DNA of 8,206 nt. Origin: a virus. Taxonomy: Monodnaviria; Loebvirae; Hofneiviricota; Faserviricetes; Tubulavirales; Inoviridae. Positions 1 to 6,125 of this stretch are shown piece by piece. The translations under genes were made by a program, and so were the position numbers. The notes below the pieces were generated by a model. That model had not been told where the DNA came from. It ran no database searches and saw nothing but the letters and a program-made list of their open reading frames with translations. The first letter of the stretch is position 1. Every line of letters starts with the position of its first letter. The stretch is taken from IMG/VR virus record IMGVR_UViG_2541047896_000001, positions 1 through 8,206 of that record, one strand, 5' to 3'.

Positions 1-1035
1 TCATCGTATCGCCCCTGAATAAACCGTCACCGTTTCTCCGTCGATTTCACCCGTCATCATCATGCCGTCAAAGCTGAACTGAGAAGCCGGCTCTATACGC
101 AGCCTCCCGGACGTGTCAGCCACGACAACCCACGCCTGACCATCGCGTTTAAGCCGTCCGGCAAGCCGCCATTTGTCCGAGACAACGGGCTTAACTGGCG
201 CAGCAGGAACTGAAACCACAGTGTTATTTCCGGCGGGTAAAACTTTTGTCTGCTGTTCAGGCTCTGAACTACCGTTTGACGTGAAAAACCAGAACAGATA
301 AAAAATGGCAATTACCGCCAGAATCAGTAACCCGGCGGCTTTAAACCACAGCATTTTAGAACTGAAAATATTCTGGCGTTTATCAGTGACAAGCTCCCTT
401 CCCTGCCCGTTCTCATGGGATTTATATAAAGGAAATATCGCCTTGTCATATTTATTCTGATAACTGTTCGTCAGATTCGACTTAAACAGCTTGATGCCCG
501 TAAATACGTCAACCCGGTAACGGTTATGCAGCCCCAGCGCCACATGCTTACTCATGCGATACGTGGTTTCCACCCGGTCTTTGATGAATCGCGGAAGGTT
601 GGCAACAGACTGATTCATAACCACTAAATCGCAGGTCACGCCTGTCTTTTCATCAGCGAAATGACGATGTTCTGCAATGAAAGAGCGATGATTTGTGGGG
701 ATTCCTTTATCGCTCTCCCATATGCGCCATGCTTCATCAATACAGATTAAATCCCCCGGACGGCAGAACGTATCATCCGCAATGCCTGAATCCGTTTTGT
801 AGGGAAAGAAATTATCGTTCTGAACGTCTTCATTCTGAACAAGTAAAATTTCACCAAGTGATTCCCTGTCTGCCTTTTTAATATCAACGCAGTAATCATA
901 AATACTTTGCGTGGCAAGGCCGTAAATATTACTGACAATGCGACGCCCAGCGATACAGGCGGGAATAATGACGCTTGCCACCACTTCGTAAGATTTACCG
1001 CTTCCGGGAATGCCCACATACGCAGAAATAGCCAT
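1..1035 (-). CDS. Filamentous phage assembly protein pI / zonula occludens toxin (Zot) family ATPase
   Basis: ATG at 1035-1033, TAA at 3-1, 344 aa. N-terminal Walker A GIPGSGKS (aa 8-15) and Walker B-like LICIDEAW (aa 96-103); single hydrophobic segment LLILAVIAIFYLFWFF (about aa 236-251) followed by a C-terminal domain of about 90 aa. This domain layout and the last position in the morphogenesis block match pI/Zot. Confidence 0.85.
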   Translation of the reverse strand: MAISAYVGIPGSGKSYEVVASVIIPACIAGRRIVSNIYGLATQSIYDYCVDIKKADRESLGEILLVQNEDVQNDNFFPYKTDSGIADDTFCRPGDLICIDEAWRIWESDKGIPTNHRSFIAEHRHFADEKTGVTCDLVVMNQSVANLPRFIKDRVETTYRMSKHVALGLHNRYRVDVFTGIKLFKSNLTNSYQNKYDKAIFPLYKSHENGQGRELVTDKRQNIFSSKMLWFKAAGLLILAVIAIFYLFWFFTSNGSSEPEQQTKVLPAGNNTVVSVPAAPVKPVVSDKWRLAGRLKRDGQAWVVVADTSGRLRIEPASQFSFDGMMMTGEIDGETVTVYSGAIR

Positions 1036-1038
1036 AAA

Positions 1039-1326
1039 TTAACCAATCAAAGGAATGCGACGAATAATAAAGCGAGTTAACAATGCTGAAAACATCAGTT
1101 TAATCCCTTCCGTGACCATAAACAGATTCACGAAATACCATACGCTGTCCGGCAATGACGAAAATAACCCGGCAATATCAACAGACTTAGGCAGCAGTGA
1201 CGCCAGAACCGGAACAAACGCCTGTACGACAAAGTACAGGCCAAAAAACAGAATAAATTTGACAACCACCGTTCGCAGCACAAAACCCAGCGCCACGTTA
1301 AAGGCTGAAACCAGAATACCAAACAT
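1039..1326 (-). CDS. Minor coat protein pVI-like (Ace position in CTXphi), small hydrophobic protein
   Basis: 95-aa ORF, ATG at 1326-1324 preceded by GGAGG on the minus strand, TAA at 1041-1039 only 3 nt before the pI ATG. Strongly hydrophobic with multiple predicted membrane spans. Its position between pIII and pI is that of gene VI. Assignment is by position and composition, not demonstrated homology. Confidence 0.65.
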   Translation of the reverse strand: MFGILVSAFNVALGFVLRTVVVKFILFFGLYFVVQAFVPVLASLLPKSVDIAGLFSSLPDSVWYFVNLFMVTEGIKLMFSALLTRFIIRRIPLIG

Positions 1327-1336
1327 AACGCCTCCG

Positions 1337-3220
1337 TCACGCAGTCAGAATGATACGCAGCGAAATAATGCCCCAGATAAGCAGGAATACCGCTTTCAGA
1401 AGTGGCCTGATTTTTTCCAGAAGCTCGCAGTGAGAATCAATGGAATATTTATTGTCCCAGAGTTCGAACGACCATACCGGACACTGAACATCCTTCGATG
1501 AAATAATCAGATTTTTAATGTCCGGCATTAATTCCGTAATTGGCTTTAGAATTTCCTCACCTGTAGGCGGTTTTTCAAGTTCCGGCGCTTTAATGCCGGG
1601 GTCTTCGCCTAAATCAACAGAAGTATCGGTATCTGTGCCTGTACCAGGGTGTACACCTGTATCCGTTCCCGCACCGGGTCTGGCATTAACCCACGACTGA
1701 GGAACGACAACCGGACTATAAAGCAAGCCCTTATCAAGTTTTACGCCAACAGCATTAGCCGCAGCCGTCAGTTCAGCCGCCGTAAAAGGTTTATCAAGCG
1801 GTATCCCCTGATATCCTTCCTGAACAACAGTCTGACCTGCAAGGCCATTAATAAGATTAACCAGCGCAGCCGGGTTTAACTGTTCTTCCGGCTTGAAATC
1901 TATATTATCAATAACCTCGCCATTAATTACCTGAGGTAAAGTTGATGTATCAAATTCTGTATTAAAAAATATCTGGTCTTTAACATCCTGAACATCATTC
2001 GTCGTTTTATACACGGCCTTCTCAGGGTGGCAAATACTTTTCCACTGCGTTTTGGGATTATCAGCCGTACTGCCCGGCGCAGGTACTTTCTCGCTTTTAC
2101 ATAAATCCCATGAATTTTCAAGCGTAACCGTTGTTGTCGCAACAGATAAAACAACAGTTACAATCGATGAATATCCACCAAAATAAGGATTCGGCTTTTC
2201 ATACTGAAAGTCTTTAACGGAAACCGAATAAACCTTAAAATTTCTTGGCATCCTGATATGTAAGTTATTGTCGTCAGAAGCCTCATGATAAGTCACATTG
2301 GAATGAGAATAACCATTAATCGACTTATAAAGCGCAATCATTACCGGATTATCACTGACAAGTACAGCATCGCCCTTTGCATCCCTGATATCAGTCGAAT
2401 AAGGATATTTAGTACCCTTTACTGACACACGATATACATCATTCGGAAATGGCTGGCTTATCGGCGGTGGTGCATCAATATTGTAATAGGTTGGCGCAAT
2501 CTGAACAGGTTTAACCTGCTGATTATAAGGGTTTATCGAATCCTGAATATTCTTCGCAGAAAAGCCAGTAGCATCAGAGGGCAAATAAACAGCAACAGGG
2601 CTTTTAGGTGAAGGTGCAACAGAAGAAGTAACAGTAGCGCCATTGGACAAATTAAGTAAATAAGTTCCATCATCCTGTTTTATTCCACTTGTAATATATT
2701 CAACAGCTTTTGCGCCCTGCTTTAAAGCAAGGTCAGCAACGGAAATAACACCCGCAGCCTGCCCCAACAATCCCCATGTTGTCTGTCCGGCAGCCATCAT
2801 ATTACTGCCAAAACTTGAAATACCCGTAGATATCGAATCGTCAATTGTATGCTTCGCAAGGCCATAAGCAGCCGCGAAAACTGACGTTCCGGTGCAAAGC
2901 TGAGGGTTACCCACTTTCTCGCCACACATGCGGATTGAATCAAAAACGTCAGGACGTTCGCGTATAACCTCCGCAGCGACAGCGATACCCGCGCCCATAC
3001 CGAGAGAACTGGCACCCGTTGCGAACACACGCCCCGCAGATTGAGAAACAACCTGAGCTTCACGGGTTTCAACCATTTGCTGAATTACACGTCCAAATCC
3101 GTCTGCTGTTACTGCATCAGCATGTACACCGGATGAAACCAGTAAGGACAATATAGTAATACCTAACTTTCCAGACCCTGAATGACCGCCCAGGCGCATA
3201 AAAGCCCCCATAAAAAACAC
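1337..3220 (-). CDS. Adsorption / minor coat protein pIII-like (receptor-binding, virion-tip protein)
   Basis: Long ORF, 627 aa from GTG at 3220-3218. In-frame ATGs at 3211-3209 and 3199-3197, the latter preceded by a GGGGG run, are more likely starts. N-terminal signal-peptide-like stretch KLGITILSLLVSSGVHA then DAVTADG; Gly/Thr/Asp-rich linker GAGTDTGVHPGTGTDTDTSVDLGEDPG; C-terminal hydrophobic anchor LLKAVFLLIWGIISLRIILTA. Lies between pVIII and pVI as gene III does. Confidence 0.7.
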   Translation of the reverse strand: MFFMGAFMRLGGHSGSGKLGITILSLLVSSGVHADAVTADGFGRVIQQMVETREAQVVSQSAGRVFATGASSLGMGAGIAVAAEVIRERPDVFDSIRMCGEKVGNPQLCTGTSVFAAAYGLAKHTIDDSISTGISSFGSNMMAAGQTTWGLLGQAAGVISVADLALKQGAKAVEYITSGIKQDDGTYLLNLSNGATVTSSVAPSPKSPVAVYLPSDATGFSAKNIQDSINPYNQQVKPVQIAPTYYNIDAPPPISQPFPNDVYRVSVKGTKYPYSTDIRDAKGDAVLVSDNPVMIALYKSINGYSHSNVTYHEASDDNNLHIRMPRNFKVYSVSVKDFQYEKPNPYFGGYSSIVTVVLSVATTTVTLENSWDLCKSEKVPAPGSTADNPKTQWKSICHPEKAVYKTTNDVQDVKDQIFFNTEFDTSTLPQVINGEVIDNIDFKPEEQLNPAALVNLINGLAGQTVVQEGYQGIPLDKPFTAAELTAAANAVGVKLDKGLLYSPVVVPQSWVNARPGAGTDTGVHPGTGTDTDTSVDLGEDPGIKAPELEKPPTGEEILKPITELMPDIKNLIISSKDVQCPVWSFELWDNKYSIDSHCELLEKIRPLLKAVFLLIWGIISLRIILTA

Positions 3221-3243
3221 ATAAAATCAAAAAGATATTGAGC

Positions 3244-3273
3244 CATAAATATAAAGGGGCTGTTACGCCCCTT
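3244..3273 (-). terminator. Rho-independent terminator/attenuator downstream of the major coat gene
   Basis: On the minus strand directly after the pVIII stop: 7-bp stem AAGGGGC / GCCCCTT (3267-3273 pairing with 3254-3260), 6-nt loop, followed by TATATTTAT (3253-3244). Established knowledge: Ff phages carry a terminator after gene VIII that sets the pVIII:pIII ratio. Confidence 0.55.
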
Positions 3274-3284
3274 ACCTTTATGAA

Positions 3285-3533
3285 TTAAGCGCCACGAACC
3301 ATACGCAAAATCCAGCGGACACCCGCAGAACCTGCATACAGAACAATAAGAGAACCCGCTACCGCCATAATTCCGGTCAGGACGGAACCGAAATTAACGC
3401 TGTTAGTCAGCGGCGTAAGGTCAATACCTTTACCACCAACAACATCACCTTCAGCAGCAAATACAGCAGGTGCAGCAACAGCCAGAGTAAAAGCACCAAT
3501 ACGGGTTAAAACCTGTTTAGTCTTACCAAACAT
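3285..3533 (-). CDS. Major coat protein pVIII precursor
   Basis: 82-aa ORF, ATG at 3533-3531 preceded by AAGGAG on the minus strand. Signal peptide MFGKTKQVLTRIGAFTLAVAAPAVFA, then a mature peptide of about 56 aa with acidic N-terminus (AEGD), hydrophobic core (VLTGIMAVAGSLIVLYAG) and basic C-terminus (VRWILRMVRGA). This is the hallmark pVIII layout. Confidence 0.85.
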   Translation of the reverse strand: MFGKTKQVLTRIGAFTLAVAAPAVFAAEGDVVGGKGIDLTPLTNSVNFGSVLTGIMAVAGSLIVLYAGSAGVRWILRMVRGA

Positions 3534-3544
3534 AAAAACTCCTT

Positions 3545-3814
3545 TTATGCATTTCTTACGTGTTTAAGAATTTCACCTATTCCCTTTGCAAAGAGCCACA
3601 GGAAAAAGGTTGTCGTAAAAGCCAGCCCCCAGAATTGCGCCGCGACTGAATAATCAATATCGGGAACAGGCTTATCCTGAGAAACTACCGAAGACTGTAA
3701 TTTAACAACTTCTGACTTCGGTAATTTCAAAGTGACTTCATCGCATCCGTCAGGGCTGCCAAAGCTCATATTCGGATTGCAATATTTTGTCCTGATGATT
3801 ACCTCATCTGACAT
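3545..3814 (-). CDS. Small membrane-anchored protein of unknown function (gene VII/IX position)
   Basis: 89-aa ORF, ATG at 3814-3812 with AAGG-containing upstream sequence, TAA at 3547-3545. Soluble N-terminal part with two Cys (YCNPNMSFGSPDGCDE) and a C-terminal hydrophobic helix FWGLAFTTTFFLWLFAKGIG. Function inferred only from position. Confidence 0.5.
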   Translation of the reverse strand: MSDEVIIRTKYCNPNMSFGSPDGCDEVTLKLPKSEVVKLQSSVVSQDKPVPDIDYSVAAQFWGLAFTTTFFLWLFAKGIGEILKHVRNA

Positions 3815-3831
3815 AAAAGTATCGCCTTAAC

Positions 3832-4122
3832 TCATTCTAATAATTCAAGCAGCATATCAACGTTATACCCTTTAGACTGCTCACCTGTCTGCTTATCAGT
3901 GTATGGGAAACTCCGTTCATAACCAGTAATACGGCAATGTACGTCTGTAATTTCATCACCAATACGGCCTAATGGTTTCTTTGATTTAATACGAATGACA
4001 GGCGGAAAGCTATAAGCATCAGCCGCAGGAGAAACAATTGTTGTATAATAAAAACCGCCACTATTATTAAAGCGTTTAATCTTTCCGGTAACAGTAGTTT
4101 CTAAATTAAGTAAATTACTCAT
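3832..4122 (-). CDS. Candidate ssDNA-binding protein (pV / RstB position)
   Basis: 96-aa ORF, ATG at 4122-4120 preceded by AAGGTG on the minus strand, TGA at 3834-3832. Small, predicted beta-rich protein immediately downstream of rep, where inoviruses encode the ssDNA-binding protein. No motif-level proof of family. Confidence 0.45.
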   Translation of the reverse strand: MSNLLNLETTVTGKIKRFNNSGGFYYTTIVSPAADAYSFPPVIRIKSKKPLGRIGDEITDVHCRITGYERSFPYTDKQTGEQSKGYNVDMLLELLE

Positions 4123-4138
4123 AATAACACCTTATATT

Positions 4139-5254
4139 CTATGCAACTCGTAAATGAGACGGTTTTACATACCACGATGGAATAACACAATCAGAAACTT
4201 TAATCTCTCGCGTTTGCTTGACAACAACAGGAGAGAATTTCGAAACATTACATTTTTGCGCAATGTCAATACCAATCTTGCGGAGTCTTGCTCGATGAAT
4301 ACGCACTTGATTTTTACTTAAATCAAAAATATGACCATGAAACCATTGGATCGCATACATAGCTGTAGTATTAGCTGCCCGTGTAGTTTCAACTATTCCA
4401 CGGGTAATAAGATGTTCACTAATAGTTTCAAAATCCATAGCATTCACCGATAACTTTTCATCAAGAGCCAGAAAATCAGAATGTAACTTATTTAAGACAG
4501 AATAATCAGATAACCCCCAAAAACCTAGAGAGTGCTTTTGAATAAAACGAGACTTCAATTTTTGTTCAAATCTGACTATTCCATTTTCCTTACAATAATC
4601 AATCACACTAACAATATAATTAAACTCTTTTGACTGCTCAGAGAATTTATTTTTTATTTTTAATAAACTATGTAACTCAATCTCATGTGACTTATTATAT
4701 ACAGTCGGATAAATAAGATTAACATTCCCTTTTTTAGACAACCAGTCAACAGATTTACCGTTTGAATGCAACCGTGGGACACTATTCCTATAGGGTTGAG
4801 TCGAAAGCCCTGAAATATAATCATCCTCATTCCCTTTGCCAACAGATTTATTAGATGTTATATGAAGCTCTTTAATTAACGCCCCATCAGTTACCATATG
4901 GGCTTTTTCGGTTTCTTTAGACTGACCGGGCATTAATCGAGTGCATTTTGTGAAAACAGGCAATTTAAGATCAAGAAGGATCTTATTGAAAACCATAACG
5001 CAAGCATCAACAGTAGGTAAGCCAAATAAATTATCAAGCCGCCCCCACCGCGAGGGGTTGCCCGTCATTTTTAGAACAGATCCACGGATAGAGATAGAAA
5101 CGACATCACAGAAAGATCCCCGGTGCTGAAAAGTTGGCTGAGAAAGCGCACTAGCCTCACCACTTTCAAGATGAATACGCTGGTAAGCAACATCCGAGAG
5201 AATAGGAAGTTGAAAGCCGAAATCCTGTTCAATACTTAACCAGTCGAAGAACAT
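4139..5254 (-). CDS. Rolling-circle replication initiation protein (pII / RstA-like)
   Basis: 371-aa ORF, ATG at 5254-5252, TAG at 4141-4139. First gene of the minus-strand operon behind a near-consensus sigma70 promoter. The N-terminal region (VVSISIRGSVLKMTGNPSRWGRLDNLFG) resembles, from memory, the conserved N-terminal block of Ff pII (CVEIKASPAKVLQGHNVFG). Size and position fit RstA/pII. Confidence 0.75.
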   Translation of the reverse strand: MFFDWLSIEQDFGFQLPILSDVAYQRIHLESGEASALSQPTFQHRGSFCDVVSISIRGSVLKMTGNPSRWGRLDNLFGLPTVDACVMVFNKILLDLKLPVFTKCTRLMPGQSKETEKAHMVTDGALIKELHITSNKSVGKGNEDDYISGLSTQPYRNSVPRLHSNGKSVDWLSKKGNVNLIYPTVYNKSHEIELHSLLKIKNKFSEQSKEFNYIVSVIDYCKENGIVRFEQKLKSRFIQKHSLGFWGLSDYSVLNKLHSDFLALDEKLSVNAMDFETISEHLITRGIVETTRAANTTAMYAIQWFHGHIFDLSKNQVRIHRARLRKIGIDIAQKCNVSKFSPVVVKQTREIKVSDCVIPSWYVKPSHLRVA

Positions 5255-5377
5255 AGCGCCCTTTCTTAGATTCTCAGAAATTATTTCATGGTGCTTTTAT
5301 AAGACCTGAGAAACTAAGTGTCAACATTTCTAAGAATTTAGAGATATGATGCAAAGCTAGCAGAATGAGGAAAGAGC
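5255..5377. promoter_or_regulatory. Divergent promoter/operator region between rep (minus) and the small plus-strand ORF
   Basis: Minus-strand promoter for rep: -35 TTGACA (complement of 5319-5324), 17-nt spacer, -10 TATAAA (complement of 5296-5301). Repeated near-palindromic TTCT-N-AGAA motifs: ttcttagat 5264-5272, ttctcagaa 5271-5279, ctgagaa 5306-5312, ttctaagaa 5329-5337. These overlap or flank the promoter and are candidate operators. A possible plus-strand -10 TATGAT lies at 5345-5350. Confidence 0.55.
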
Positions 5378-5566
5378 ATGCCTACAAAGCACATAAACGA
5401 TGTTCAATGGAGAAAAATAGAGAAAGAAACCGTTAGAGCGGTATCAACCCTAGCTGTTCCAGTTAAAGATACCAAAATGCTCGAATGGATAATCGCCAAA
5501 GGGTTAGAGACGATCACAGAAGACGACTACCGCAAGTTCCTGAAGACAGAAAGCAAAAAAAAATAA
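5378..5566 (+). CDS. Small hypothetical protein, candidate phage regulator (RstR-like position)
   Basis: 62-aa ORF, ATG at 5378 with GAGG 7 nt upstream, transcribed divergently from rep as rstR is in CTXphi. Lys-rich C-terminus. No recognisable helix-turn-helix, so the regulator call rests on position only. Confidence 0.5.
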   Translation: MPTKHINDVQWRKIEKETVRAVSTLAVPVKDTKMLEWIIAKGLETITEDDYRKFLKTESKKK

Positions 5567-5758
5567 GCGAGCAGGGAAAAAATACGGGAAACCGTACTAA
5601 AGTTCGGGTGTCACAGAACCCCGAACCGCTTCGCGGCGAAAAAACGAACAACAGCAGAGCTTGCGAAATCGGAATTAAGATAAGCTGGACGTCAAACGAT
5701 TAAACAAAAATACGCCATTATGCAAAGATCAAATGACACACTCTAAAAGGTATAGGTA

Positions 5759-6025
5759 ATGAACAAAGACCAGATAATACAAGTACTTAATGAAACAGAG
5801 AATGACAGCCCCGTAGCAAGAGCAGAATTAGCAAGATTCCTCGTAAAAACAATCTACAATTTTGTAAAAATGGAGAGGCCAGAAGGTGAAGGTCTGGACG
5901 GACGTGATGGCCCAGAAAGGCGCAGCATGGGAAAAATTGTAGATGCGGCAGAAAACCACTACTTTAACATGATAAAAGAAAGCCATGAAAAACAGGGAAT
6001 TGGAAGAAAAAACCCTGAGGAATGA
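5759..6025 (+). CDS. Hypothetical protein, unknown function
   Basis: 88-aa ORF, ATG at 5759 with AAAGG 8 nt upstream, TGA at 6023-6025, immediately followed by the dif-like site and a hairpin with T-run. Charged, Glu/Lys/Arg-rich; no motif recognised. Confidence 0.45.
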   Translation: MNKDQIIQVLNETENDSPVARAELARFLVKTIYNFVKMERPEGEGLDGRDGPERRSMGKIVDAAENHYFNMIKESHEKQGIGRKNPEE

Positions 6026-6031
6026 CGCCCT

Positions 6032-6125
6032 AATGCGCATAATGACGTTATGCTAAAGAGGCCGCTGCGGGATTCTATTTTCGCAGCGGCCTTTTCAACA
6101 TAACGAGTCAAACATTATGCGCACC
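6032..6125. other. Xer-type attachment structure: two inverted dif-like sites separated by a GC-rich hairpin (attP-like / prophage-host junction)
   Basis: Site A, plus strand: 6032-6042 aatgcgcataa (9/11 to the dif XerC arm GGTGCGCATAA), 5-nt spacer, 6048-6058 ttatgctaaag (9/11 to the XerD arm TTATGTTAAAT). Site B, minus strand: complement of 6115-6125 = ggtgcgcataa (11/11), 11-nt spacer, complement of 6093-6103 = ttatgttgaaa (9/11). Perfect 11-bp inverted repeat 6034-6044 / 6113-6123 and 7-bp inverted repeat 6046-6052 / 6099-6105. The dif consensus is recalled from memory. Confidence 0.65.
6060..6095 (+). terminator. Rho-independent terminator-like hairpin at the apex of the attachment structure
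   Basis: 10-bp GC-rich stem GGCCGCTGCG (6060-6069) / CGCAGCGGCC (6082-6091), 12-nt loop, then TTTT (6092-6095), 35 nt downstream of the 88-aa ORF stop. It may serve both as a terminator and as the tip of the folded attP hairpin. Confidence 0.6.

Follow-up and report, generated by a model that had tools for sequence, protein, structure and literature searches.

Introduction

The filamentous phage CTXphi has no secretin of its own and uses the host protein EpsD, and the coliphage If1 does not integrate. Ypfphi and CUS-1phi have been tabulated as related members of the CTXphi-type integration class (PMC4246890). In Ypfphi the XerC/XerD sites are inverted, an intact dif is restored at the 3' end, an imperfect dif is left between copies, and tandem repeats form (PMC4266046). 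UPphi (UPphi901), another dif-integrating phage, combines structural genes ∼70% identical at the amino acid (aa) level to those of IKe/I2-2 with genes II and V more than 85% identical to those of Ypfphi, a mosaic of replication and structural modules that also has small novel open reading frames (ORFs) near dif; it occurs nearly unchanged, in tandem arrays, among E. coli, Citrobacter koseri, Salmonella and others (Shapiro & Putonti 2020; PMC7307601). Here we analyse an 8,206-nt stretch of DNA (hereafter the window; IMG/VR record IMGVR_UViG_2541047896_000001), most of which reads as an inovirus inserted at dif in an E. coli chromosome.

In our reading, window positions 1-6125 hold most of a temperate inovirus that is intact and lies next to dif on its hipA side, with a full unit of 7,722 bp and ten genes; we put the probability of this at roughly 0.85. 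The analysis established which genes the phage carries, where it is inserted, the sequences of its junctions, its potential to form a hairpin, and its near-identity across hosts. The lineage appears to be unnamed, yet it is abundant in public genomes and already represented in PHROG families, and it is of a well-known kind. A literature search returned no paper on exactly this lineage, which is weak evidence given its incomplete coverage.

An intact inovirus gene block

Nine intact inovirus genes lie within positions 1-6111/6125: seven co-directional ORFs on the minus strand (1-5254), separated in Rep to pI order by gaps of 16, 17, 11, 85, 10 and 3 nt, and two small divergent ORFs on the plus strand. 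All nine match PHROG phage families (E 5e-26 to 6e-196). The block has the features expected of an Inoviridae-type (Tubulavirales) phage: a pI/Zot ATPase (PF05707, E 9.5e-24, cut-off 20.3 bits), a rolling-circle initiator and a small single-stranded DNA (ssDNA)-binding protein heading a single co-directional block, and a small major coat protein with a signal peptide, a hydrophobic core and a basic C-terminus. Its order (rep, ssb, coat genes, pIII, pVI, pI, and, where present, pIV) is that of the IKe annotation; the If1 annotation has the same order from gene V to gene IV, with the Rep-homologous ORF320 directly upstream of gene V on the circular map. A filamentous virion with circular ssDNA, released by non-lytic extrusion, is predicted for such a phage.

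A preliminary description of the window, made without database searches, had proposed an integrated inovirus with a complete and tightly spaced rep-to-pI module, a pI stop codon exactly at positions 1-3, a right boundary near 6125, and a phage block more AT-rich than its host-like flank. These proposals hold. Pfam domains (Zot, DUF2523, G2P_X_C, Phage_CRI) and the PHROG matches identify the element as an inovirus, where ORFs that were not inovirus proteins had been named as grounds for discarding the idea; the minus strand ends in ...CGATGA at the pI stop; host sequence begins at 6112; and G+C content is 42.5% across 1-6111 vs. 51.7% across 6112-8206, falling to 36-37% in the Rep and pV genes.

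Insertion at the chromosomal dif site

Over 2,095 nt, the right-hand part of the window (6112-8206) matches the chromosome of E. coli SCU-172 at 100% identity; at that position SCU-172 has an intact 28-bp dif and no prophage, i.e. an empty site. In K-12, the sequence flanking dif matches window positions 6112-6200, with the same flank following dif on the hipA side, and the whole right flank is syntenic with the K-12 dif-hipA-yneO region. Positions 6112-6125 (ACATTATGCGCACC), comprising the dif XerC arm and three central bases, are common to phage and host, and this shared sequence places the crossover zone at 6112-6125.

Comparison of the occupied window with the empty SCU-172 and K-12 sites thus bears out the earlier proposal of a chromosomal prophage, and locates it at dif. 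The opposite possibility, which the preliminary description had itself named as one that would overturn it, is that the block lies on a plasmid or an episomal replicative form. Fragments corresponding to its attachment site (attP) and to a 38-nt element occur on 435 plasmids, and a related 10-kb record from Citrobacter is labelled a ‘plasmid’; against this, the flank is that of a chromosome, both by its identity to SCU-172 and by its synteny with K-12, and no plasmid covers 80% or more of the phage. We reject a plasmid location on the strength of the junction and the absence of a phage-covering plasmid, and regard it as scarcely credible.

The E. coli flank on the hipA side of dif (6112-8206) retains hipA remnants at 6207-6259 and 6260-6345, followed by an internally truncated autotransporter gene of the yneO/ECSE_1600 family (6345-8206, minus strand), identified by mapping to K-12. 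Relative to K-12, three deletions (472, 668 and 2,431 bp) have removed hipBA, leaving only the 53-nt and 86-nt hipA pieces; they take out hipB together with the 3' 1.9 kb (the translocator end) of the autotransporter gene. The same scar, at 100% identity, is present in three complete E. coli genomes (SCU-172, MSB1_4I and OZ547117). Since dif is empty in at least SCU-172 despite the scar, the hipBA deletion predates phage entry. A pattern scan of genome contigs for the hipA-deletion junction gave 0 matches. In the E. coli relatives of the prophage the order is prophage, hipA, hipB, and an ECSE_1600-family autotransporter gene.

Near-identical copies supply the far end

The window breaks off at the end of pI, where the minus-strand ATG of a secretin (pIV) gene overlaps the pI TGA (ATGA, 1-4) and the secretin gene runs off the left edge. 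Sixteen loci (L003-L018), several of which overlap the same arrays, were fetched via the exact pI and 620-aa pIII proteins. Their phage DNA is 99.77-99.98% identical to window 1-6126 (∼6.1 kb), with one to fourteen base differences, and all nine ORF lengths equal those called in the 16 loci. In all near-identical copies, as well as in the 93-98% identical prophages of E. coli NCTC9040 and PEC148, pI is followed, through the ATGA overlap, by a 420-aa PF00263 secretin. After the secretin come 338 nt with hairpins and no convincing ORF, then a perfect 28-bp dif (GGTGCGCATAATGTATATTATGTTAAAT), beyond which the host DNA differs between loci. It is these copies that give the 7,722-bp, ten-gene unit, in which Pfam and PHROG reveal no recombinase domain and hence no element-encoded integrase.

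The preliminary description had left cargo and secretin undecided at the window edge, offering the toxin genes of CTXphi and the secretin of Ff as precedents. The near-identical copies, rather than the left flank of this copy, speak for the Ff-like case, a secretin after pI, and against a CTXphi-like ctxAB. A toxin-converting phage of the CTXphi type, with no secretin and with virulence cargo after zot, would account for the Zot-family pI, for the weakly Ace-like pVI, and for a window that ends where ctxAB lies in CTXphi. It would not account for a Rep that is not of the RstA type, nor for a secretin that comes next in all copies of 99.8% identity or more, and likewise in the E. coli relatives at 93-98%, followed by only 338 nt before dif; we consider it very improbable. 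As judged from the sequenced copies, the lineage has its own secretin and needs none from the host, and it has no toxin cargo and no room for ctxAB-like genes; it is not, then, a CTXphi-style virulence converter.

Near-identical copies occur in at least six chromosomal contexts, and are found single, paired or triple, the last two as tandem arrays. One copy in another chromosomal context (L014) differs from the window by a single synonymous change, at 5411. Those flanks of the copies that can be aligned to E. coli are only 74-79% identical to it, and the small ORFs have homologues recorded under the names Citrobacter koseri, Salmonella enterica, Serratia and E. coli; the flank identity and the source names of the 62-aa and 88-aa homologues together point to hosts outside Escherichia. 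Taken at face value, the sequences imply that the phage has spread very recently across genera, and near-identity across genera is our main argument for recent activity. The preliminary suggestion of an active or recently active prophage is accordingly well supported in its second form, by near-identity in at least six contexts, by the one-base difference, and by the tandem arrays: the prophage was probably active recently, and it may be producing virions at present. With an inovirus so little changed at dif across E. coli and other Enterobacteriaceae, any effect it has on fitness, biofilm formation or chromosome-dimer resolution would be widely shared.

The attachment site and the proposed route of integration

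Two dif-like sites lie in inverted orientation at the right end of the phage block; they were found by reading the sequence together with a search for a repeated 11-mer. Site A (6032-6058, plus strand) reads AATGCGCATAA-TGACG-TTATGCTAAAG, a dif-like XerC arm, a 5-nt centre and a XerD arm. Site B (6093-6125), the prophage-host junction, reads on the minus strand GGTGCGCATAA-TGTTTGACTCG-TTATGTTGAAA, an imperfect hybrid dif with an 11-nt centre. Between them, a G+C-rich stem-loop seen in both the sequence and the fold (6060-6091; GGCCGCTGCG, a 12-nt loop, CGCAGCGGCC) caps the attP hairpin. The 11-mer TGCGCATAATG occurs twice, inverted, once in each site, vs. 0.01 occurrences expected. A search of the window for the dif 28-mer with up to 3 mismatches found none, because the junction site has an 11-nt centre.

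Folded as ssDNA, the minus strand of 6020-6135 reaches a free energy of -31 kcal/mol (z -7.44), with 0 of 200 shuffled sequences as stable. On this gene-sense strand, which by analogy with Ff would be the packaged (+) strand, sites A and B pair arm to arm around an asymmetric central bubble, in a compact structure of ∼94 nt from arm to arm. The element thus has the sequence hallmarks of CTX-type integrative mobile elements exploiting Xer (IMEX): integration exactly at dif, an inverted dif-like pair forming a (+)-strand hairpin, and a hybrid site in the window, to which 7 near-identical loci, with 6 distinct flanks, add a perfect 28-bp dif at their far end. The junction between tandem copies, seen in L012, is again the imperfect site B with its 11-nt centre.

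A simpler arrangement would be that of VGJphi, in which a single duplex dif-like attP recombines reversibly; the second site and the hairpin would then be incidental, serving for instance as a transcription terminator. Site B alone does have a perfect XerC arm and a near-consensus XerD arm, and the G+C-rich stem-loop resembles a bidirectional terminator after the 88-aa ORF. The centre of site B, however, is 11 nt rather than 6, and a Xer site with an 11-nt central region should be unproductive as a duplex substrate. The great stability of the arm-to-arm ssDNA hairpin likewise speaks against this arrangement, as does the junction pattern, imperfect at one end and a perfect dif at the other, which is that of CTXphi and Ypfphi; we think the arrangement improbable.

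Integration by the ssDNA route of CTXphi, Ypfphi and CUS-1 is therefore the reading we retain. Under it, the two inverted dif-like sites on the packaged (+) strand would fold into a hairpin that mimics dif, host XerC would exchange one pair of strands between this hairpin and the chromosomal dif, and replication would resolve the junction. The outcome would be an imperfect hybrid site with an 11-nt centre beside hipA and a perfect dif at the far end. Integration of the CTX type cannot be reversed, so that progeny would need a tandem array, arising by Rep-driven rolling-circle replication from one copy into the next, with the conserved 38-nt element at 5598-5635 as the proposed start. The ssDNA/XerC mechanism, the dependence on XerC and the irreversibility are all carried over from the characterised phages of this class.

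Weighing the reading

Several points weigh against the interpretation of the locus as an intact prophage that integrates and multiplies in this way. Neither the secretin and the 338-nt tail nor the far-end dif and the copy number can be read from the window; near-identical copies supply them, and virions, a replicative form and XerC dependence are for this lineage predictions from sequence alone. A solitary CTX-type prophage could not make progeny, and four related loci hold a single copy (L007, L008, L014 and L015). Pfam, NCBIfam and PDB yielded no recognisable family or fold for the 62-aa and 88-aa ORFs, and BFVD yielded none for the 88-aa ORF. The origin role of the 38-nt element is proposed solely from its conservation and its co-occurrence with one Rep type; the element is not thermodynamically exceptional, and the surrounding 192-nt intergenic region folds unexceptionally (z -1.08). 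Finally, the UTI89 dif prophage (L020), with which the lineage is compared below, was taken as a stand-in for CUS-1 by serotype (O18:K1:H7), site and 13-ORF architecture, not by accession.

The first and third of these points also favour the most serious rival, namely that this copy is dead or locked, either truncated or disrupted to the left of the window, or solitary and unable to yield progeny. The window ends at the pI stop with its left part unseen, single-copy lysogens exist among the near-identical loci, and relatives do decay: the NCTC9040 pIII gene is split, and insertion sequences adjoin some of the prophages. The nine window genes are nevertheless intact, the ATGA overlap that starts the secretin is present, and a copy in another genome is only one synonymous base away, leaving almost no time for decay. 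We hold a dead or locked copy to be unlikely, though less so than the other rivals, and keep to an intact prophage.

Features of the individual genes

The pI protein (1-1035, minus strand; 344 aa) is a Zot-family assembly ATPase (PHROG 197, E 8.7e-87, in addition to the Pfam match given above) with the Walker A motif GIPGSGKS and one transmembrane segment. The exact protein is recorded in 265 blocks of public assemblies; a pattern scan of genome contigs for pI gave 178 pattern matches, of which 0 were confirmed. Upstream lies a pVI-like minor coat protein of 95 aa (1039-1326, minus strand; DUF2523, PF10734, E 1.3e-12; PHROG 974, E 6e-28), which also matches the ‘Ace-like’ PHROG 306 distantly (E 6e-6).

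The pIII-like adsorption protein (1337-3199, minus strand; PHROG 3942, E 5.9e-196) has 620 aa from the ATG at 3199, or 627 aa from an alternative GTG at 3220. Besides a signal peptide, it has a linker rich in G, T and D, and a membrane anchor at its C-terminal end; in its exact 620-aa form it is found in 171 blocks of public assemblies. Its central, receptor-binding part (window 1590-3075) is the variable region among sibling prophages. In PEC148 megablast fails to align this centre, with 93-97% identity in its flanks; the NCTC9040 gene is broken into ORFs of 192 bp and 1,590 bp.

The 85-nt gap between the major-coat and pIII-like genes contains a terminator-like hairpin (3254-3273, minus strand), a putative function, at the position where IKe annotates a stem-loop after gene VIII. 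The pVIII-like major coat precursor (3285-3533, minus strand; 82 aa) reads MFGK...VFA|AEGD...RMVRGA, with a predicted mature N-terminus of AEGD..., a hydrophobic core and a basic C-terminus. It matches PHROG 2186 (‘virion structural protein’, E 2e-26), its homologue in PEC148 is annotated as the major capsid protein, and its Pfam Phage_Coat_B match is weak, below threshold (E 0.17). Next to it, in the pVII/pIX position, an 89-aa protein with a hydrophobic C-terminal half (3545-3814, minus strand; PHROG 3679, E 9e-33) is presumably a small virion or membrane protein; its C-terminal 48 aa are 37.5% identical to a ‘membrane protein’ of the UTI89 prophage.

Replication functions head the block. 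The 96-aa pV-like protein (3832-4122, minus strand) matches PHROG 8473 (‘single strand DNA binding protein’, E 1.4e-41), and Rep (4139-5254, minus strand; 371 aa) is a rolling-circle initiator of the Ff pII/X family, If1 type (G2P_X_C, E 1.5e-24; Phage_CRI, E 1.8e-4), also matched by the NCBIfam model TIGR01629 rep_II_X.

The control region, small ORFs and a candidate origin

Between rep and the 62-aa ORF lies a 123-nt divergent control region (5255-5377) with inverted repeats built on TCTAAG/CTTAGA (5263-5340) and a promoter-like site on the plus strand (5321-5350); from its position, it may act as an operator. The 62-aa ORF (5378-5566, plus strand; PHROG 5219, E 5e-26) is divergent from rep, in the position of rstR, and is by that position a candidate repressor. 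It has 35 homologues in Citrobacter koseri, Salmonella, E. coli and Pseudoalteromonas, one of them named ‘Repressor’ by UniRef. Its AlphaFold2 (AF2) model has three helices (mean predicted local distance difference test score, pLDDT, 69.5), and relaxed Pfam, NCBIfam and structure searches placed it in no recognisable family or fold of DNA-binding proteins, the one PDB match being meaningless.

The second plus-strand ORF (5759-6025; 88 aa; PHROG 37184, E 2e-62) contains the nearly invariant motif PEGEGLDGRDGPERR. Thirty homologues were aligned (alignment A2), and a nearly invariant loop motif (RPEGEGLDGRDGPERR) persists across family members that are only 35-45% identical overall. The AF2 three-helix model is confident (pLDDT 87.3), with no structural match at E≤0.001 in PDB or BFVD and nothing meaningful in relaxed Pfam and NCBIfam searches. 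Its conservation in relatives shows that this ORF is not variable cargo; it is a conserved, uncharacterised inovirus protein.

Between the two small ORFs is the 38-nt core CGCGAAGCGGTTCGGGGTTCTGTGACACCCGAACTTTA (5598-5635, minus strand), which contains a hairpin and is identical at 38/38 positions to If1 5052-5089, in the If1 ‘major intergenic region’, while the adjacent rep gene is 74% identical at the DNA level. The core is present in 5/5 examined genomes with an If1-type Rep (the window, If1, LD39-1, NCTC9040, and UTAK-3, the last with one extra base) and absent from 3/3 examined genomes with other Reps (MS20655, UTI89 and IKe). This distribution makes it a candidate for the cognate origin of the If1-type Rep. 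Rfam at the gathering threshold gave no match.

The accessory slot and related fragments on plasmids

In the LD39-1 prophage, a homologue of the 88-aa protein (71% identical) is followed by a 1.1-kb gene and then by attP, and the placement of that gene identifies the family's variable cargo slot, which lies between the 88-aa gene and attP rather than after pI; in the window the slot (6026-6031) is empty. In NCTC9040 (L001, 13243-15965), the stretch from the tandem prophage to hipA holds first an ISNCY transposase gene, then a Shedu immune-nuclease gene (14909-15709) flanked by two cores, the 38-nt one at 14777-14814 and a degenerate one at 15729-15766, and last an attP-like sequence, so that a defence gene occupies the slot between core and attP.

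The 435 plasmids mentioned above (389 of them conjugative, from E. coli, Salmonella, Klebsiella and Pantoea) match window 5575-5640 and 6036-6121. The top-ranked plasmid records and three fetched loci match only the 38-nt core and the attP hairpin, except for H122-H124, which have longer phage-derived matches. Core and attP lie 1.0-1.6 kb apart on the plasmids and enclose different genes (L026, 3001-4564; L028, 3991-5036; L029, 3945-5298), among them one for a TIR-domain protein on the IncFIA plasmid pECO-816c and one for a helix-turn-helix (HTH) protein on Klebsiella pINF078-VP. The latter plasmid keeps a secretin fragment 89% identical to that of the lineage, which indicates that at least some plasmid units are decayed prophages. 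What core and attP frame in these relatives is of a defence or regulatory type, with the HTH genes found on Klebsiella virulence plasmids. A more adventurous and doubtful idea is that the core-cargo-attP units are more than decayed prophages, namely satellites like RS1 or TLC, which would be replicated by the If1-type Rep of a helper, for which this phage is an example, packaged, and reinserted by XerCD at dif or at plasmid Xer sites; if this were true, such units would move defence genes between chromosomes and conjugative plasmids.

In UTAK-3 (L024, 1634-2340), two repeats ∼480 bp apart lie between tandem copies of another dif inovirus, whose Rep is 89% identical to that of the window. Each repeat has an inverted dif-like pair around a G+C hairpin and no annotated ORF, and the two could represent miniature elements that depend on Xer and have stacked up at dif.

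Relationship to known phages

Taken as a whole, the lineage has no close counterpart among characterised phages. For pI, the best matches in the phage collection come from uncultured gut inoviruses (∼44-56% aa identity), and since megablast against that collection matched only a 64-nt intergenic piece of If1, protein searches were needed. The genome is mosaic, joining a replication module of the If1 type to a morphogenesis module that resembles that of CUS-1 only distantly.

Sibling prophages lie at the same site in E. coli NCTC9040, PEC148 and MS20655. In NCTC9040, DNA identity is 97.8% over the whole phage part, with a different 338-nt tail and a 7,669-bp unit; in PEC148, the central part of pIII differs. 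In MS20655, a tandem prophage, the structural proteins are 97-100% identical, and another module (L019, 9845-12791) replaces Rep, pV and the 62-aa and 88-aa ORFs; it includes a Rep called a ‘replication initiation factor’, additional small ORFs and, in the tail, an HTH gene. Near-identical structural proteins beside a different Rep/regulation module indicate that modules have been exchanged.

The UTI89 prophage, our proxy for CUS-1, occupies the hipA side of dif in the same orientation, with two inverted dif-like sites, tandem arrays and an intact far-end dif. Its gene plan is likewise shared: regulator(s) divergent from rep, then genes for an ssDNA-binding protein, a small membrane protein, a major coat protein, a pIII-like protein, a DUF2523 pVI, a Zot pI and a secretin, the last two forming the two-gene secretion module of CUS-1 and Ypfphi. 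Protein identities are 46% for pI, 57% for pVI, 55% for the secretin, 51% for pVIII, and 33% over the C-terminal 246 aa of pIII. At the nucleotide level, however, there is no such similarity, only sensitive blastn matches (68% over 37% of the pI-pVI region), and neither Rep nor pV gives a tblastn match at E≤1e-2 or 1e-3. The window's putative regulator is a 62-aa protein without a detectable HTH, whereas that of UTI89 is a 148-aa HTH protein; the unit is 7.7 kb rather than 8.7 kb, without large accessory ORFs at the hipA-side end; and the homologues of YPO2280a and YPO2281 that follow the secretin in CUS-1 and Ypfphi are matched by no ORFs after the secretin in the window lineage. With no high nucleotide identity over the 7.1-kb core, again using UTI89 as proxy, membership in the CUS-1/Ypfphi species-level group (99% nucleotide identity among members) is rejected. 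The preliminary assignment to a CUS-like group is therefore right as to insertion site, orientation, gene order, secretin and CTX-type attP, and needs qualifying as to sequence, which is distant (33-57% aa, morphogenesis proteins only) and joined to an If1-like replication module.

With CTXphi, the lineage shares the proposed use of XerCD/dif via two inverted sites folding on the (+) strand, the divergent arrangement of regulator and rep, tandem arrays and, at a distance, a Zot-family pI and an Ace-like pVI. It differs in its compact attP hairpin and in its Rep, which belongs to the pII/X family instead of being an RstA-type protein; nor does ctxAB or any other cargo follow pI. The CTXphi-like core of the preliminary description thus stands for the integration module and, distantly, for Zot and Ace, and fails for Rep and for the secretin, which the lineage encodes itself. 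CTXphi proper is rejected as an identity on account of the pII/X Rep and of the secretin and absence of cargo in near-identical copies.

The parallel with UPphi lies in lifestyle, host list and mosaicism. Identity with UPphi is rejected, as the window is not IKe-like and both Rep and pV side with If1 rather than with the CUS-1 type; no window protein has a tblastn match in IKe, and the lineage's secretin (from L012) is 30% identical to that of IKe at the aa level. The mosaic structure of the genome supports free exchange of replication modules among enterobacterial inoviruses, and the findings as a whole leave the current understanding of how such phages work unchanged.

With If1, finally, the likeness is confined to replication: Rep is 81.8% identical in aa over its full length (If1 7316-8429), pV is 88% identical, and the 38-nt core is the same. 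DNA alignment is limited to rep (74%), gene V (77%) and a 61-nt intergenic piece. The If1 record (L021, NC_001954.1) covers 7316-8429 with an ‘ORF320; homologous to R-pyocin’ and part of a ‘minor intergenic region’, which together encode the full-length Rep homologue in two aligned pieces overlapping near 7440-7465; this suggests a frameshift, a sequencing error or a mis-annotated gene II in the 1990s record. In If1 there is no tblastn match to the pVIII-, pIII- or pVI-like proteins, the 89-aa protein or pI of the window, or to the lineage's secretin, nor are there homologues of the 62-aa and 88-aa ORFs or a counterpart of the attP, and without genome-wide similarity membership in Infulavirus, the genus of this I-pilus phage, is rejected. 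What the two have in common is a cassette of Rep, gene V and an origin-like element, and through it a non-integrating coliphage is connected with prophages that integrate at dif.

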